Assembly (NCBI GenBank): GCA_964364285.1
Contig: CAYIKZ010000005.1
Coordinates: 1 to 48,037, forward strand
Reading direction: 5' to 3'
Source of the DNA: an uncultured Candidatus Saccharibacteria bacterium
Lineage (GTDB): Bacteria > Patescibacteriota > Doudnabacteria > UBA920 > VMFF01
Length of the DNA stretch: 48,037 bases
Part shown: positions 17,920-23,775 of the stretch, piece after piece
Layout of the letters: every line of letters begins with the position of its first letter
Numbering within the stretch: position 1 is the first letter of the stretch
Notes under the pieces: model-generated
What the model saw: the letters and a program-made list of their open reading frames with translations, nothing else
What the model was told of the DNA's origin: nothing
The model's database searches: none
Program-made: the position numbers and the translations under genes

Positions 17920-20235
17920 ATGGTTAAGAAACAACAAAAATTAAATACACACAAGTCTACAGTTTTTTGTAGCTTAGATATTGAAACCTCTGGGTTTGAT
18001 CCTTCAGAGAGTGAAGTTTTAGAATTGGGTATGGTTTTTTTCGAGATTGAAAACAAGAGTATAAAAATATTGAGTGAGTGGCAATCTGTTTTCAAACCAA
18101 CAAAAGAAGTTCCACCAAGAATTCTTGCACTAACAGGTATTAGTCAAGAAGAACTAGATCAAGCAGAATCTTTCAGAGATAAATACGATCAGATTCAGAG
18201 TCTTGTTAAAGATTGTGTTATAGTAGGACACAATATTAGTTTTGATATTAAATTCTTAGAAGGTTTTGGAATCAAGTTTTCCGGAAAACAAATTGATACT
18301 CTTGATCTGGCCCAGATGCTTTTGCCAAACAACCAATCATATAACCTTGAAGCTTTAATGAATTTCTTAGAGGTTGACCACAAAGATGCGCACAGGGCCC
18401 TGGCTGATGCAAAAGCAGTATTGGTTGTCATCGAAAGACTCTTGCAATATTTTGCAACATTTTCTGAGAAACTTAAAAAAGAACTAAGAGATTTCTTTCT
18501 TTCTAAAAAGTTCCCTGAGTTTTCTCAATTCTTAGAAACAGATTTTAAACCAAGAGATATACAAGTTAGGGAAAGAAATTTAGAGATACACGAAAGCAAA
18601 GAGATAACTAAAGCTTTAGAAGAAGATCAAAAGATCGTGACCTTTCCTTTAGGTTTTGAATATCAGTCATATATTTACGGTGCTTTAAAGAAAACAAAAG
18701 AGAAAATTCTTCTAGTCGTTGAGAACAAAAATATTGTATATCAGCTTTGGAAGCAAGGAGTCGCGTATCCTCTTTTTGCAAACAGAGACATTTTAAACAA
18801 GGATGCTTTAGAAAAGACTTTTAAGTCTAAAATGCCTTTAGATCAGCGTTTTTTCTTAGCAAAAATGATGGTTTGGAAAGAAACTAATTGGCAATCAGAA
18901 TCACTTGTAGACCTTAATTTTTCATACACAGGCAATCAATTTAGAAGCCTAATATCCTATTCTGATGAAGAAGATTTAAAGTGGAAGATAGAGGAAAAAT
19001 CAAAGGTTATCACAGTTGATTACACTGACTTTATTAATCTCAAAGATACTTCTAAGTTTGAAAAAAGAAAATTAGTTATTCTTGATCTAAATGCTTTTGA
19101 ACAAGCATTAACATTTGTTACAAGCAAAAAAGTTTCTTGGAATGATTTCATATATTCATTCAAACAAATTTATGATCCCGAAACACAAAGAGGGAACAAT
19201 CAATATGAAGATCTAGTTCTTGAATCTTTAGCAGAGGTTGATTTATTCTTTGGTTTCGCTTCAATGCACTGGAAAAAAATAGATAGCGAGTCATATCAAT
19301 TCTTGGTTAATGAAAAAACAGAGGCTAATACAAACTACGAAGTAATCCAAATAGCGGCACAAAACTTCATTACAAAGATTAGAAAGATAAACAAAACATT
19401 TAAATCAGATCGTATTGATTGGAATTTGGAATATTTAGAAAATTTTTTTGAAAGCGATCCAACTCAAATTCGTTGGATAGAGATTGGAGACAAGAGATTG
19501 GTATTTTCTCTTGCACCGTTAAGTCTTGAAACAATCGCTTCCGAGTTATTTAGCAGTTACAAAAAAATACTATTCACAGCATCTCTTGGTTCAGAGAAGC
19601 TGGTTCAATATTTTGAACATCGTTTGAATTTAAAAAACTTTGATTTAAAAAAAGTTGGTCAGCAAGAATTAAGAAAAAGATTTGAAGTAATAATCTCAGC
19701 ACAAAATTCTGCTCCACAAATTGATAGTGAGGGTTTAATACGATTGTTGGAAAAATTAGACTATCCGGCTGCTTTGTTAATGCCAAGCTCTTCTGCTTTA
19801 AGGACATTCTATGAAGCAAACTTCAAAAAACTTCAGGAAAAATATAAGGTTGCAGCACAAAGCTATTCTGGTGGTTCAAACAAACTTTTGGAAAATTTTA
19901 GTATTCATTCAAATGGACTGTTAATAGTTACTGATAACTTCATACTTAAACAAAGCGCAAAGAGAATAAAGGTTAGAGACGTAGTTATGACCAGACTTCC
20001 TTTTGAACAGTTTAATCACCCGCTTTTTGCAGCTCAAGCAGAGAAATATCCTAACCAATTCATAGATTTTAACATTCCAAGGGCTTTGCATAACTTCCAC
20101 AGCATAATTCGCTTTTTTTTCAGCACTGATCTTGAAAGAATCTACATTTTAGATCAGAAAATACATAAGGATTACGGTAAATACTTCGTTGAGTACCTAA
20201 AATCACTGCCTTTTGTAGATATCAAGTATGAATAG
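17920..20235 (+). CDS. DEDDh 3'-5' exonuclease fused to a degenerate DinG-like helicase
   Basis: LDIETSG, VGHNISFD and HRALADA exonuclease motifs; C-terminal LFTASL and VVMTRLPF DinG-like motifs; no Walker A or DEAH. Confidence 0.8.
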   Translation: MVKKQQKLNTHKSTVFCSLDIETSGFDPSESEVLELGMVFFEIENKSIKILSEWQSVFKPTKEVPPRILALTGISQEELDQAESFRDKYDQIQSLVKDCVIVGHNISFDIKFLEGFGIKFSGKQIDTLDLAQMLLPNNQSYNLEALMNFLEVDHKDAHRALADAKAVLVVIERLLQYFATFSEKLKKELRDFFLSKKFPEFSQFLETDFKPRDIQVRERNLEIHESKEITKALEEDQKIVTFPLGFEYQSYIYGALKKTKEKILLVVENKNIVYQLWKQGVAYPLFANRDILNKDALEKTFKSKMPLDQRFFLAKMMVWKETNWQSESLVDLNFSYTGNQFRSLISYSDEEDLKWKIEEKSKVITVDYTDFINLKDTSKFEKRKLVILDLNAFEQALTFVTSKKVSWNDFIYSFKQIYDPETQRGNNQYEDLVLESLAEVDLFFGFASMHWKKIDSESYQFLVNEKTEANTNYEVIQIAAQNFITKIRKINKTFKSDRIDWNLEYLENFFESDPTQIRWIEIGDKRLVFSLAPLSLETIASELFSSYKKILFTASLGSEKLVQYFEHRLNLKNFDLKKVGQQELRKRFEVIISAQNSAPQIDSEGLIRLLEKLDYPAALLMPSSSALRTFYEANFKKLQEKYKVAAQSYSGGSNKLLENFSIHSNGLLIVTDNFILKQSAKRIKVRDVVMTRLPFEQFNHPLFAAQAEKYPNQFIDFNIPRALHNFHSIIRFFFSTDLERIYILDQKIHKDYGKYFVEYLKSLPFVDIKYE

Positions 20236-20332
20236 GTGTGTATAACACAAGATATTAACAAGATATTTACACCCTTTTTGGCTCTTTTTTCTTCATTTGT
20301 TGGCTTTAGTTAGCCAAAATAGCACCAGAGAA

Positions 20333-20362
20333 TTGACATTAGGTCAATTTCTGTGATAATAT
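20333..20362 (+). promoter_or_regulatory. sigma70-type promoter with an overlapping inverted repeat
   Basis: TTGACA at 20333 with extended -10 (TG-T-GATAAT or TG-A-TAATAT); AATTGAC-N5-GTCAATT at 20331-20349. Confidence 0.7.
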
Positions 20363-20366
20363 ATAT

Positions 20367-20791
20367 ACGTAACGTTTTCCACAGCACCTTAACAAATACA
20401 AACTACAGACAGGGACTTGTTCCTAAGCAATTTGGGGCCAACTCTCTTGTTACTTCTCGTCATAGCCTATTTAAGTCGTAGGCTGATTGAAAACAAAAAC
20501 AAAATGAAGAGGTTTCTCCTTACCTTAAAAGGACAAAAATATAAAACACATACAAACAAAAAGTTTCGTTTAGGTCTACGGACCACAAGAGAAGTACAAG
20601 GTCTATAGTTTGTAACTCGACTTAGTTACAGGCGTTACAGTTGGTTTCTATGCATGTATTTCCTCCTGCATTAGGTTTAGGGCTTAAAAGGTTTAAGCCC
20701 TGCATCTAATGCGGGGAGAAGTCGCCGAAATCGACTATAAAGGCCCTCGGGGCTTAAAATTTATTTTATGAGCTTGCCGCAGGGCCTTTTT
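20367..20791 (+). ncRNA. candidate large structured ncRNA of unknown class
   Basis: Own promoter and terminator; nested long-range helices; C(UACG)G tetraloop; loop-loop complementarity (see findings). Confidence 0.6.
20739..20791 (+). terminator. long terminator hairpin
   Basis: AAAGGCCCT...AGGGCCTTT followed by TT. Confidence 0.7.
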
Positions 20792-20813
20792 GCATTTTTA
20801 AGTGGGTTTACCT

Positions 20814-20846
20814 AGAGCTTGTCAGGCTCTTTTTTTAATATATAAT
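20814..20846 (+). promoter_or_regulatory. second terminator with a nested promoter for the dksA-like gene
   Basis: AGAGC-TTGTCAG-GCTCT plus T-run; TTGTCA-16nt-TATAAT. Confidence 0.55.
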
Positions 20847-20875
20847 AACTATGTAATTAAAACGTTACGAAAAAA

Positions 20876-21184
20876 ATGCCCTCCAAAGAATTTGTGGAAA
20901 AAATGAATGAAAGATTGTTAGAGGAAAAAGAACGTCTTTCGGGAGAATTAAGCGAACTATCATCACACACTGAAATGGGTGATGAAGATGATGAGAATGC
21001 TCAAGAAGTTGGTAATGATGAGGTTAGTCAAGATATTGCCGCAACCTTAAAAGCAGATCTTAAAAAGATTGAGTCAGCTTTAAAGCGAATTGAAGATGGC
21101 AGTTATGGTATGACTGCTGACGGACAGGAAATTCCAGAAGCAAGATTAGAAGTTTTGCCTTGGGCAGATTCAATAGTTGAATAA
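20876..21184 (+). CDS. TraR/DksA family transcription factor lacking zinc-finger cysteines
   Basis: Coiled coil with acidic tip, then ALKRIEDGSYG...IPEARLEVLPWA. Confidence 0.8.
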   Translation: MPSKEFVEKMNERLLEEKERLSGELSELSSHTEMGDEDDENAQEVGNDEVSQDIAATLKADLKKIESALKRIEDGSYGMTADGQEIPEARLEVLPWADSIVE

Positions 21185-21188
21185 CAAA

Positions 21189-21602
21189 ATGAAAAACATT
21201 AAGGAAAAGATAACATACTCCTTAGTGTTTTTTTTATTCTTCCTTCTTGATCAAGCAACAAAGTACTTTGTTTTAAAAAAACATCGTGCTTTAATATTTG
21301 AAAATGAAAACTTTGCTTTTAGTTTAAAAGTTCCAACTCCTTTGATGTATTTAACATACATCATTCTTTTAGGGCTGCTTTCTAATTGGTTTTTAAAAAA
21401 ACAAAACAAAAATATTCTAGACAAGCTTGGTTTTGTTTTAATCCTTTCAGGAGCAGTTTCAAATATTTCAGAACGTTTGTTCAATGGTTTTGTGATTGAT
21501 TTCGTTCACATATATACCGGGGTTTTTAATCTTGCAGATTTTTTCATAATTCTAGGAATTATTCTTCTGTTTTTTTCAAAAGACGAGTTAATGAAAAATT
21601 AA
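21189..21602 (+). CDS. lspA: lipoprotein signal peptidase II
   Basis: LDQATK, NENFAFS, GAVSNISER, VIDF, FNLAD. Confidence 0.9.
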   Translation: MKNIKEKITYSLVFFLFFLLDQATKYFVLKKHRALIFENENFAFSLKVPTPLMYLTYIILLGLLSNWFLKKQNKNILDKLGFVLILSGAVSNISERLFNGFVIDFVHIYTGVFNLADFFIILGIILLFFSKDELMKN

Positions 21603-23247: not shown

Positions 23248-23775
23248 ATGAACTCAAAAACAAAAATCAAGATTTTCGCGATATTAATGGGTATAAACCT
23301 TTTTAGCGTTGCGTCAGTATTTGCTGCTAATCCAAAAGGATCTGGTTTAACTGTTTGCGGCAATTCAACTACATCTCAGATTCAAACGTATCAAGATTGG
23401 TTAATACAGCATCCAAAAAACGGTGTAGAGTACCAAGCCAAACAAGATCAGTGGTACATAGATGAACAGAAACAGCGTGATTTAGCAGGAATGTGCGCAC
23501 CTAAAGATATATACAAACAAATTGGTAGAATCATAAACTTCCTGGTCGGAATTTCTACAGCATACTTGGTTTTCAAACTTGCTTTTGCCGGTTATATTAT
23601 GGCAGTGTTTAAAGGTAATGAAACAGCTTTAACAGAAGCGAAAACTCAGATTGGTCATAGCATTACTGGAATGGTTTTAATTTTTGGCGCATACTTAACA
23701 GTAATGACTTTCTTTGGAGATATCTTTGGTGTAAATATACGTTTGCCTTTAGGTATAAACTTGTTTGAGAAATAA
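23248..23775 (+). CDS. VirB2/TrbC-type (T4SS_pilin-like) pilin
   Basis: Signal peptide ending VFA, Cys pair, two TM segments separated by GNE...AK. Confidence 0.65.
   Translation: MNSKTKIKIFAILMGINLFSVASVFAANPKGSGLTVCGNSTTSQIQTYQDWLIQHPKNGVEYQAKQDQWYIDEQKQRDLAGMCAPKDIYKQIGRIINFLVGISTAYLVFKLAFAGYIMAVFKGNETALTEAKTQIGHSITGMVLIFGAYLTVMTFFGDIFGVNIRLPLGINLFEK

Follow-up and report, generated by a model that had tools for sequence, protein, structure and literature searches.

The window analyzed here, a stretch of 48,037 nucleotides (nt) from an uncultured member of the Doudnabacteria (contig CAYIKZ010000005.1), carries at positions 20367-20791 of its + strand the gene of a non-coding, structured RNA of ~430 nt, probably transcribed independently, whose family is not in Rfam 15. 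This RNA very probably represents a real new family of non-coding RNAs, and a good case can be made that it belongs to a new class of large bacterial RNAs. The original prediction, made from the letters of the sequence alone, had proposed an undescribed large non-coding RNA or RNA switch at this site, the former of which is supported by the negative outcome of the Rfam search together with strong covariation among homologues; the sequence of 20367-20791 was as it had been written there. The minimum free energy of the + strand of this segment is -138.9 kcal/mol, compared with -96.0 ± 5.7 kcal/mol in 100 dinucleotide shuffles (z = -7.59, with 0 of the 100 shuffles as good), and the - strand folds with a weaker z of -4.91.

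The fold is a three-way junction of helices P1, P2, and P3, and the large multiloop closed by P3 contains hairpins H1 and H3 and, between them, the invariant single strand GNUUGN-AAAACAAAAAYAAAA, a variable hairpin, and a second A-rich strand. A kissing-loop pseudoknot of 7-8 base pairs (bp) joins the loop of H1 to that of a downstream hairpin, H4, after which come a second domain and an intrinsic terminator. The elements of the locus, in order, are:

20333-20360, + strand: promoter of the RNA, of near-consensus sigma-70 type, with a -35 element TTGACA at 20333, a 16-nt spacer, and, up to 20360, a TG-extended -10 element (TGtGATAAT); 11 of 12 positions match.
20367-20800, + strand: predicted transcript of ~430 nt, its start inferred from the -10 element and its end from the terminator U-tract, with a 5' leader ahead of P1.
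20397-20410, + strand: 5' strand of P1, partner of 20601-20614, with covariation in family f1.
20411-20445, + strand: P2 hairpin, variable in length, with a purine-rich 5' base (AGGGA or AAGGAAA) opposite UCUCU or UUUCCUU.
20446-20458, + strand: 5' strand of P3 (CUUGU-U-ACUUCUC), partner of 20589-20600.
20459-20463, + strand: junction GUCAU, which belongs to CGUCAUAG and is identical in all 72 rows of alignment A3.
20464-20484, + strand: H1 hairpin, whose loop residues 20472-20478 (UAAGUCG) lie in the pseudoknot.
20485-20506, + strand: GAUUG-AAAACAAAAACAAAA-UG, the best-conserved of the single strands, comprising an (A5Y)n tract with, in most members, an AUG behind it; from invariant columns of alignments A3 and A4.
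20507-20572, + strand: a hairpin region that varies, its loop pyrimidine-rich (in relatives CCUUAA or CCCCRA), and the second A-rich single strand.
20573-20584, + strand: H3 hairpin GGUC-UACG-GACC, followed by the conserved junction AYAAG (20585-20589).
20589-20614, + strand: 3' strands of P3 (20589-20600) and P1 (20601-20614).
20608-20634, + strand: H4 hairpin, whose loop 20618-20624 (CGACUUA) kisses the H1 loop.
20635-20740, + strand: domain 2, an elongated, irregular hairpin whose internal loop (GUUU / GCA) is conserved and whose tip has 10 bp.
20741-20800, + strand: intrinsic terminator, a long hairpin AAAGGCCCU...AGGGCCUUU followed by a U-tract (terminator-like hairpins at 20741-20755 and 20741-20791).
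20814-20846, + strand: second terminator-like hairpin (20814-20830), overlapping a promoter-like site TTGTCA-16-TATAAT (20819-20846) of the next gene.

Homologues were collected in several ways. With BLAST the region turned up in 17 of 41 relatives, a count that proved too low and was corrected with a covariance model. A core pattern, made from the best-conserved stretch, gave 83 stretches in species-representative genomes, 80 of which are numbered L029-L108. A MAFFT alignment of 46 of these sequences (A4), for which RNAalifold gave 28 pairs, 12 with compensatory changes, was used to build a 204-position covariance model (R1). This model matches 93 of 97 sources at E <= 1.1e-9; those that it misses are two chance pattern matches (L056 and L095), a chance BLAST match (L026), and a stretch holding the 3' part of the RNA only (L014). 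For pair counts we used a model-based alignment (A5) and not the MAFFT alignment A3, where the window's family is shifted by one column. Across 81 distinct rows, standard pairs fill 96.9% of 2761 cells, compared with 84.8% in the shuffled case, where none of 500 shuffles came as high. Changes on both sides occur at 23 of the 36 pairs, and the covariation score is 0.380 against 0.172. When partners were slid by 1-3 columns, pairing fell to 32-48%. All covariation counts come from related sequences, and those for the nested helices from an alignment that was fitted to the model, a bias of which the counts for the pseudoknot and those based on MAFFT are free.

Covariation among the homologues is strong, and it includes the kissing loop suggested in the original prediction. 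TAAGTCG/CGACTTA is 95.4% paired with compensatory changes at 6 of 8 pairs, and the loop pairs seen include UAAGUC/GACUUA, CCAAUC/GAUUGG, UCUAACC/GGUUAGA, CUAGUC/GACUAG, and CCAGCC/GGCUGG. Because the kissing-loop pairs are absent from R1 and were added by hand, this covariation is not a product of fitting to the model. Conserved G-U pairs are common (UG in 80 of 81 sequences at columns 23-51, for example); since these would be A-C mismatches on the opposite strand, they indicate that the + strand is the functional one.

Most of the helices that had been paired by eye hold among the relatives. P3 (CTTGTTACTTCTC/GAGAAGTACAAG) is 93-96% paired in the 81 sequences, with double changes at 8 of 11 pairs; H1 (AGCCTA/TAGGCT) is 99.6% paired with 3 of 7 pairs compensatory; and H3 (GGTC-loop-GACC) is 99.4% paired, its loops varying among UNCG- and GNRA-type tetraloops and its closing pair being CG (51 sequences), GC (19), or AU (7). 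The H4 helix, part of the kissing-loop arrangement, has compensatory changes at 5 of 6 pairs. Within the 8 sequences of the window's family, pairing in P1 (TACAAACTACAGAC/GTCTATAGTTTGTA) reaches 95.1%, with compensatory changes at 3 of its 13 pairs, and in the domain-2 helix TCCTGCATTAG/CTAATGCGGGG it reaches 100%, with such changes at 8 of 11. The helix drawn as closing domain 2 stands in part: in the same 8 sequences its inner 10 pairs are 100% paired, 5 of them compensatory, whereas the outer 3 are 75% paired and show no covariation. A local hairpin, AGUCG-CCGAAAU-CGACU, was considered in place of this closing helix and rejected as the weaker of the two (85% paired with 1 compensatory pair, against 100% with 5 of 10). 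The 10-bp AGGGCTTAAA tip hairpin of domain 2 is invariant in 8 family-f1 sequences and hence uninformative for covariation; the outer parts of the domain differ between families, and some f2 sequences have no tip.

Three details of the initial drawing had to be given up. The hairpin AGGGAC/GTTCCT would leave a loop of 2 nt, and both the fold and the relatives give instead the longer P2 hairpin at 20411-20445, whose base pairs are kept in 46-50 of 50 f2-type sequences. The UACAG/CUAUA element, described as common to both closing helices, is conserved no further than the genus. The second AAGTCG, at 20719, had been offered as a possible competitor for the kissing loop, and we saw no sign of such competition; the local hairpin in which it would take part is the one rejected above as weaker. 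Two segments nonetheless have more than one partner. CCUU at 20446-20449 pairs with the 5' AAGG at 20411-20415 (P2) in 46 of 50 sequences and with the 3' RRAG at 20597-20600 (distal P3) in 50 of 50, and both pairings covary. GUUUG at 20608-20612 pairs by eye with either CAAAC at 20399-20403 (P1) or CAGAC at 20630-20634 (H4), in keeping with the overlap in the aligned rows between inner P1 (CAAAC/GUUUG) and the base of H4, likewise seen by eye. These two mutually exclusive sets of pairings could be a conformational switch or simply breathing at the junction, and such alternatives do not amount to demonstrated switching.

The most conserved sequences of the RNA are the A-rich tract, CGUCAUAG, and AGGUC...GACCAYAAG. 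The invariance of the GUCAU junction and of the A-rich tract in A3 and A4 is partly built in, since the pattern that yielded the 71 relatives in A3 included CGTCATAGC and the AAACAAAAA run with its preceding TG. The (A5Y)n tract is also found in family f4, whose members were obtained with the model, and as AAAUAAAAAUAAAA in syntenic relatives, neither of which was collected with the core pattern. The junction reads CGUCGUAG in f4 and AUAG in Andersenbacteria-type relatives, and the variable region corresponding to 20507-20572 ranges from 50 to 139 nt among relatives.

The promoter and terminator originally assigned to the RNA were confirmed as TTGACA-16-TGtGATAAT upstream and a hairpin with a U-tract at the end. 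A promoter score of at least 10 of 13 was obtained in 71 of 71 related loci with enough flanking sequence, compared with 4 of 65 control regions. Among these 71 promoters, which sit 72-231 nt upstream of the modeled core, the -35 element is a perfect TTGACA in 69 and the -10 element is extended (TG) in 62. Retention of the promoter in all 71 loci argues for transcription of the RNA. A crude script found a hairpin and U-run 140-200 nt past the core in 49 of the 71 related loci, and 28 of 73 loci, compared with 4 of 65 controls, have a promoter-like site in the gap from the RNA to the dksA-like gene. Hence the RNA appears to form its own transcription unit, as judged from the window locus with its two terminators and a separate promoter ahead of dksA; the segment 20814-20846, which holds the second of these terminators, is genus-specific in the alignment of the window's family. 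One sequencing run (X1), from a library labeled metagenomic RNA-Seq cDNA and flagged as probably DNA, yielded a single 159-nt contig spanning 20486-20643, with no flanks, which speaks neither for nor against expression.

The RNA is non-coding, and its small open reading frame (ORF) is not conserved. Two ORFs are present in the window, one at 20417-20608 (63 amino acids) and one of 34 codons beginning at the AUG at 20504, and this AUG follows an A-rich leader typical of the genome's start sites, as might be expected if the transcript were the mRNA of a small protein. As the function of the family, this reading is already refuted and retains virtually no probability. The 63-codon ORF is broken in relatives, with a 1-nt deletion shifting the frame in G002 and no start codon in G006, and in the alignment of the window's family the helices stay paired through double substitutions. 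Among 74 distinct sequences, an AUG follows the A-tract in 58, in 34 of which a stop codon comes directly next, and 16 have no AUG; the ORFs that remain would encode peptides that are unrelated to each other and range from 3 to over 50 residues. Substitutions are compensatory in the helices and show no codon pattern.

Against Rfam 15 (4227 models) there was no match at the gathering threshold in 20367-20791, so the novelty of the RNA was not refuted; the only matches window-wide were six tRNAs and the start of a 16S rRNA. A permissive run (E up to 10 on 20150-20950) gave as its best match RT-14 (24.7 bits where the threshold is 48.1; E 0.48), and otherwise only matches well short of threshold, to microRNA and small nucleolar RNA models and to a handful of unrelated elements, bacterial and eukaryotic. 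The hallmarks of transfer-messenger RNA (tmRNA), RNase P RNA, signal recognition particle (SRP) RNA, and T-box leaders had been reported as missing, in agreement with which the region has no Rfam match to any of them. RNase P RNA and tmRNA have their genomic copies elsewhere, at C7:34929-35302 (374 nt, 173.5 bits) and C16:6512-6895 (384 nt, 133.8 bits), and resemble the present RNA in length, in being pseudoknotted, and in occurring once per genome. A T-box leader is further disfavored by the downstream genes, which are dksA-like and lspA and not related to aminoacyl-tRNA. A template RNA of a retron, a diversity-generating retroelement, or a defense-associated reverse transcriptase was rejected from the neighbors of the RNA (recA, dinG-like, dksA-like, and lspA); the two reverse transcriptase genes of the genome (RVT_1) are on other contigs, at C1:85172-85786 (81.2 bits) and C8:26618-27211 (33.7 bits). 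The complement of the A-rich tract (GTTTTTGTTTT) occurs 10 times, scattered over the genome and with no arrays, so that nothing suggests a templated repeat. A phage-borne RNA of the ROOL or GOLLD type likewise found no Rfam match, and the core pattern gave 0 matches in a viral contig collection. Full-text searches of the literature outside subscription journals and supplements found no description of the RNA, and passages of PMC10768705, PMC11293204, and PMC11740963 contain nothing bearing on it.

The flanking genes are all on the + strand, in the order recA, DEDDh-exonuclease/DinG-type helicase, RNA, DksA-like, and LspA. The immediate neighbors are:

17920-20235, + strand: upstream neighbor, a DEDDh exonuclease fused to a DinG-type helicase (RNase_T and Helicase_C_2 domains).
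20876-21184, + strand: downstream neighbor, a DksA-like protein without the Cys zinc finger.
21177-21602, + strand: downstream neighbor, LspA.

Among at most 79 loci, the dinG-like gene lies upstream in 55, the dksA-like gene downstream in 58, and lspA downstream in 66. The median distance from the start of H1 to the start of dksA is 437 nt, which leaves a short gap after the 3' end of the RNA. The DksA-like protein beside the RNA has lost its four zinc-finger cysteines in families f1 and f2 and has kept an acidic DENA-type tip, while its relatives in other lineages (L157 and L161) retain a C4 zinc finger.

The RNA is nearly universal in its class. Exactly one copy was found with R1 in 134 of 146 class genomes, all in one order, and in 113 of the 118 class genomes that are at least 90% complete. 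With the window's own genome (691,620 bp, 38% G+C, 98.65% complete) excluded, R1 finds it in 7 of 9 genomes of family f1, 91 of 95 of f2, 24 of 25 of f3, 9 of 9 of f4, 1 of 2 of f5, and 1 of 5 of f6. When applied to an even sample of 151 Patescibacteria, R1 finds all 7 class members. Five matches outside the class (E 2e-4 to 9e-3) are weak and were not counted as members, and the full-length outside matches in G175 and G242 have many non-canonical pairs, one of them overlapping an ORF. Three contigs filed under metagenome-assembled genomes (MAGs) of Acidobacteriaceae, Binatia, and Verrucomicrobiia (L034, L054, and L100) carry a full f3-type RNA; they are probably Doudnabacteria contigs placed in the wrong MAG.

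More distant relatives were sought by searching for LspA in the phylum sample and inspecting the DNA upstream of it. Family f56 (L155, L161, and L170) has the same layout of DinG-type helicase, RNA, DksA/TraR, and LspA. At its loci the promoter reads TTGACA-17-TGnTATTAT and the leader resembles AGUUCUUUACA; a P3-like stem, AUAG, and an H1 hairpin follow, the loop of the latter (CGAUC) having its complement, GAUCG, downstream, and the tract AAAUAAAAAUAAAAUUGCAG and a terminator are present as well. One f56 RNA folds with a z of -8.43. R1 missed this type because of an extra domain of ~130 nt inserted between P3 and AUAG. An f56-type pattern found 4 stretches, one of them at a contig end in a Maribacter MAG and others filed under Candidatus Andersenbacteria and the Parcubacteria group; L188-L190 likewise count among the diverged relatives. 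L157 (f71) has a P3-like stem, an A5Y tract, and an H1-like hairpin with a downstream loop complement; L162 (f14) has a P3-like stem and an A5Y tract in a different arrangement, and no loop partner was seen there. The stretches L155, L157, L161, L162, and L170 have no Rfam match. A short, broad model of 54 positions (R2) found, among the 151 genomes, the 7 genomes of the class, the three f56 seed genomes, and 2 marginal matches (E ~0.04), and nothing more; since neither L157 nor L162 was among these, the two are assigned to the family by synteny and by shared motifs recognized by eye. Judged on such features, the family appears to reach beyond Doudnabacteria, with diverged syntenic relatives in Andersenbacteria-type and other Patescibacteria.

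As to function, we favor a model in which the RNA would act in trans as a stable, abundant ribonucleoprotein (RNP) or scaffold RNA. We put at about 0.5 the probability that it is a trans-acting RNP or binding platform, rather than a cis-acting leader or a ribozyme, and give roughly the same even odds to the best explanation as a whole, that is, the RNA family and its mode of action taken together. The pseudoknotted core would serve as a rigid frame in which the (A5Y)n strands, poor in G and U, stay open for a partner to dock on. The A-rich strands are unable to pair within the RNA and are its best-conserved part, which suggests that they are the site at which a partner docks. The partner could be RNA polymerase, the 30S subunit or S1, or a protein that binds single-stranded RNA; each of these, taken singly, is unlikely. 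Start regions in the genome are A-rich (A at 58% at position -4) and poor in Shine-Dalgarno sequences (a Shine-Dalgarno-like motif in 23% against 11% in the control, and a strong one in 8%), so that the tract with its AUG has the look of a translation start region, which is the ground for naming the 30S subunit or S1. A stable trans-acting RNP RNA would be in keeping with the single copy, the presence across the lineage, and the near-consensus promoter. Several points weigh against this model. The ends, abundance, and stability of the transcript are inferred; Hfq (PF17209), the classic binder of AAN repeats, was not found in the genome; and mimicry of a ribosome-binding start region is not valid for all members, since f3-type members have no AUG. 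The RNA is also always upstream of dksA-like/lspA on the same strand, in distant lineages too, and a cis-acting leader would look alike. Finally, the two segments with mutually exclusive covarying partners would be more natural in a switch than in a rigid scaffold.

The last two points are those on which the main rival rests, namely that the RNA is a cis-regulatory leader or attenuator (an RNA switch) of dksA-like/lspA, in which read-through of the terminator would be set by a sensed ligand, protein, or condition. We regard this as unlikely, even though the constant position directly upstream of these genes, the short gap to the start of dksA, and the two exclusive partners of both CCUU and GUUUG all speak for it. 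At 400-520 nt, with a pseudoknot and two domains, the RNA exceeds the ~100-300 nt usual for leaders; in the window the two terminators are followed by a separate near-consensus dksA promoter, with the promoter-like sites of 28 of 73 loci pointing the same way; and no anti-terminator complementary to the 5' strand of the terminator was seen. A near-consensus constitutive promoter is, moreover, typical of stable-RNA genes. Because the dinG-like gene upstream is equally conserved (55 loci), linkage to dksA-like/lspA may just reflect a conserved gene block. Roughly comparable in standing, and itself unlikely, would be that the RNA is a subunit of an undescribed housekeeping RNP, or a large ribozyme, that arose early in Patescibacteria and was kept single and strongly expressed in Doudnabacteria, in Andersenbacteria-type lineages, and, further diverged, elsewhere. 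As these bacteria apparently have neither 6S RNA nor any of the SRP system, it might take on a core role in translation, protein targeting, or transcription that falls to different machinery in other bacteria, and its exclusive helices would be a working conformational cycle.

Less probable again is a large ribozyme or a self-assembling architectural RNA in the style of ROOL, GOLLD, or OLE, with the 7-8-bp loop contact made between molecules. Many invariant unpaired nucleotides in a pseudoknotted multi-helix core, together with a size and complexity within the range of known large ornate RNAs, suit such a role, and covariation is blind to whether loops pair within or between molecules. We recognized no catalytic-core motif, however, and Rfam gave no ribozyme match. 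ROOL, GOLLD, and raiA are also large ornate RNAs known from comparative genomics, with loop-loop contacts that are important to their architecture, but ROOL and GOLLD are often phage-associated, whereas the present RNA is chromosomal, single-copy, nearly universal in its class, absent from viral contigs, and without Rfam match. OLE, from Firmicutes, is likewise large, structured, rich in invariant nucleotides, single-copy, chromosomal, restricted to one lineage, and set in a conserved neighborhood, and its function was reportedly unknown when it was discovered. It differs in being ~610 nt long and in coming from another phylum, the present RNA of ~430 nt belonging to tiny genomes and matching no Rfam model, and the A-rich single strands and kissing-loop core belong to the present RNA. 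Somewhat more doubtful still is a functional analogue of 6S RNA or Ms1, which would bind RNA polymerase through the A-rich internal loop and tune global transcription, perhaps with the DksA-like factor. 6S RNA forms one long, irregular hairpin of ~180-200 nt that opens into a central bubble and lacks a pseudoknot; it binds the RNA polymerase holoenzyme and templates product RNAs. The present gene would suit such an analogue in being of an abundant type, single-copy, lineage-wide, and strongly promoted, in adjoining the gene of an RNA-polymerase-binding (DksA-like) factor, and in lying in a genome with no recognizable 6S RNA; its core can be drawn as a closing stem, a large internal loop with one small hairpin per strand, and a terminal stem. 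6S RNA itself was rejected on the basis that there is no RF00013 match, either in the region at E up to 10 or in the genome, and that the RNA, at ~430 nt, is more than twice the length of 6S and has two domains and a covarying pseudoknot, features not known in 6S. An analogue is further disfavored by the lack of any other Rfam match at E up to 10, by A/C-rich loop strands that are unlike a melted promoter, and by the pairing of dksA with lspA in Firmicutes, where no such RNA is known to accompany it.

An extremely diverged housekeeping RNA missed by the Rfam models, for which SRP RNA would be the example, is very improbable. Its appeal is that SRP RNA in its small and large forms (RF00169 and RF01854) was not found in the window's genome, nor RF00169 in any of 41 relatives, while the present RNA is lineage-wide. 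The protein partners are not found in the genome either, however: the Ffh M domain (PF02978) and TIGR00959 gave no match, the SRP54 GTPase (PF00448) gave only 17.7 bits, at the level of a P-loop, and no DTAGR motif occurs in its six frames. SecY, the positive control, was found at 365 bits. RNase P RNA and tmRNA are present elsewhere in the genome, and Rfam gave no SRP match to the region at E up to 10. Among 151 Patescibacteria, PF00448 produced partial matches only, nearly all at the P-loop end, the longest covering 122 of 196 positions and the best scoring 25.9 bits, compared with matches in 14 of 14 control genomes. The SRP system therefore seems to be missing in the window's genome and in the samples of related genomes, which may be known already or may reflect a limit of the search; we found no statement on its absence in the literature.

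Among A-rich RNAs, a comparison can be made with CrcZ and CrcY of Pseudomonas, ~400-nt sponges whose several A-rich motifs sequester Hfq. The present RNA is of similar size, and several unpaired A-rich repeats of the AAN type, comprising the AAAACAAAAACAAAA tract and further CAAAA repeats, are its most conserved feature. It differs in the absence of a detected Hfq, in a far more elaborate covarying tertiary fold, and in being of a constitutive, lineage-wide type, whereas CrcZ and CrcY belong to a catabolite-repression regulon. Large, highly structured bacterial RNAs are rare. Those known include the rRNAs, RNase P RNA, tmRNA, and group I and II introns, joined later by OLE, GOLLD, ROOL, and raiA, and each opened new biology. 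That a locus of ~430 nt is conserved in genomes of ~0.7-1 Mb argues for an important function. On the housekeeping reading, a large RNA would exist lineage-wide alongside RNase P RNA and tmRNA. The RNA may also help to explain how Patescibacteria cope without standard systems such as SRP. The alignments, the models, and the (A5Y)n tract provide handles for structure probing, cryo-EM, partner pull-downs, and wider searches.

Two minor observations concern other parts of the genome. A candidate for an SRP RNA motif at C8:33787 was rejected, having no Rfam match and lying within a GC-rich stretch with ORFs; this stretch (C8:33600-34200, or L027 600-1220) holds overlapping ORFs in a genome of 38% G+C and is possibly foreign DNA. 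Within the window, the ORF at 23248-23775, near a solute-binding protein gene, weakly matches the pilin family of type IV secretion systems, its 19.7 bits falling short of the cut-off.

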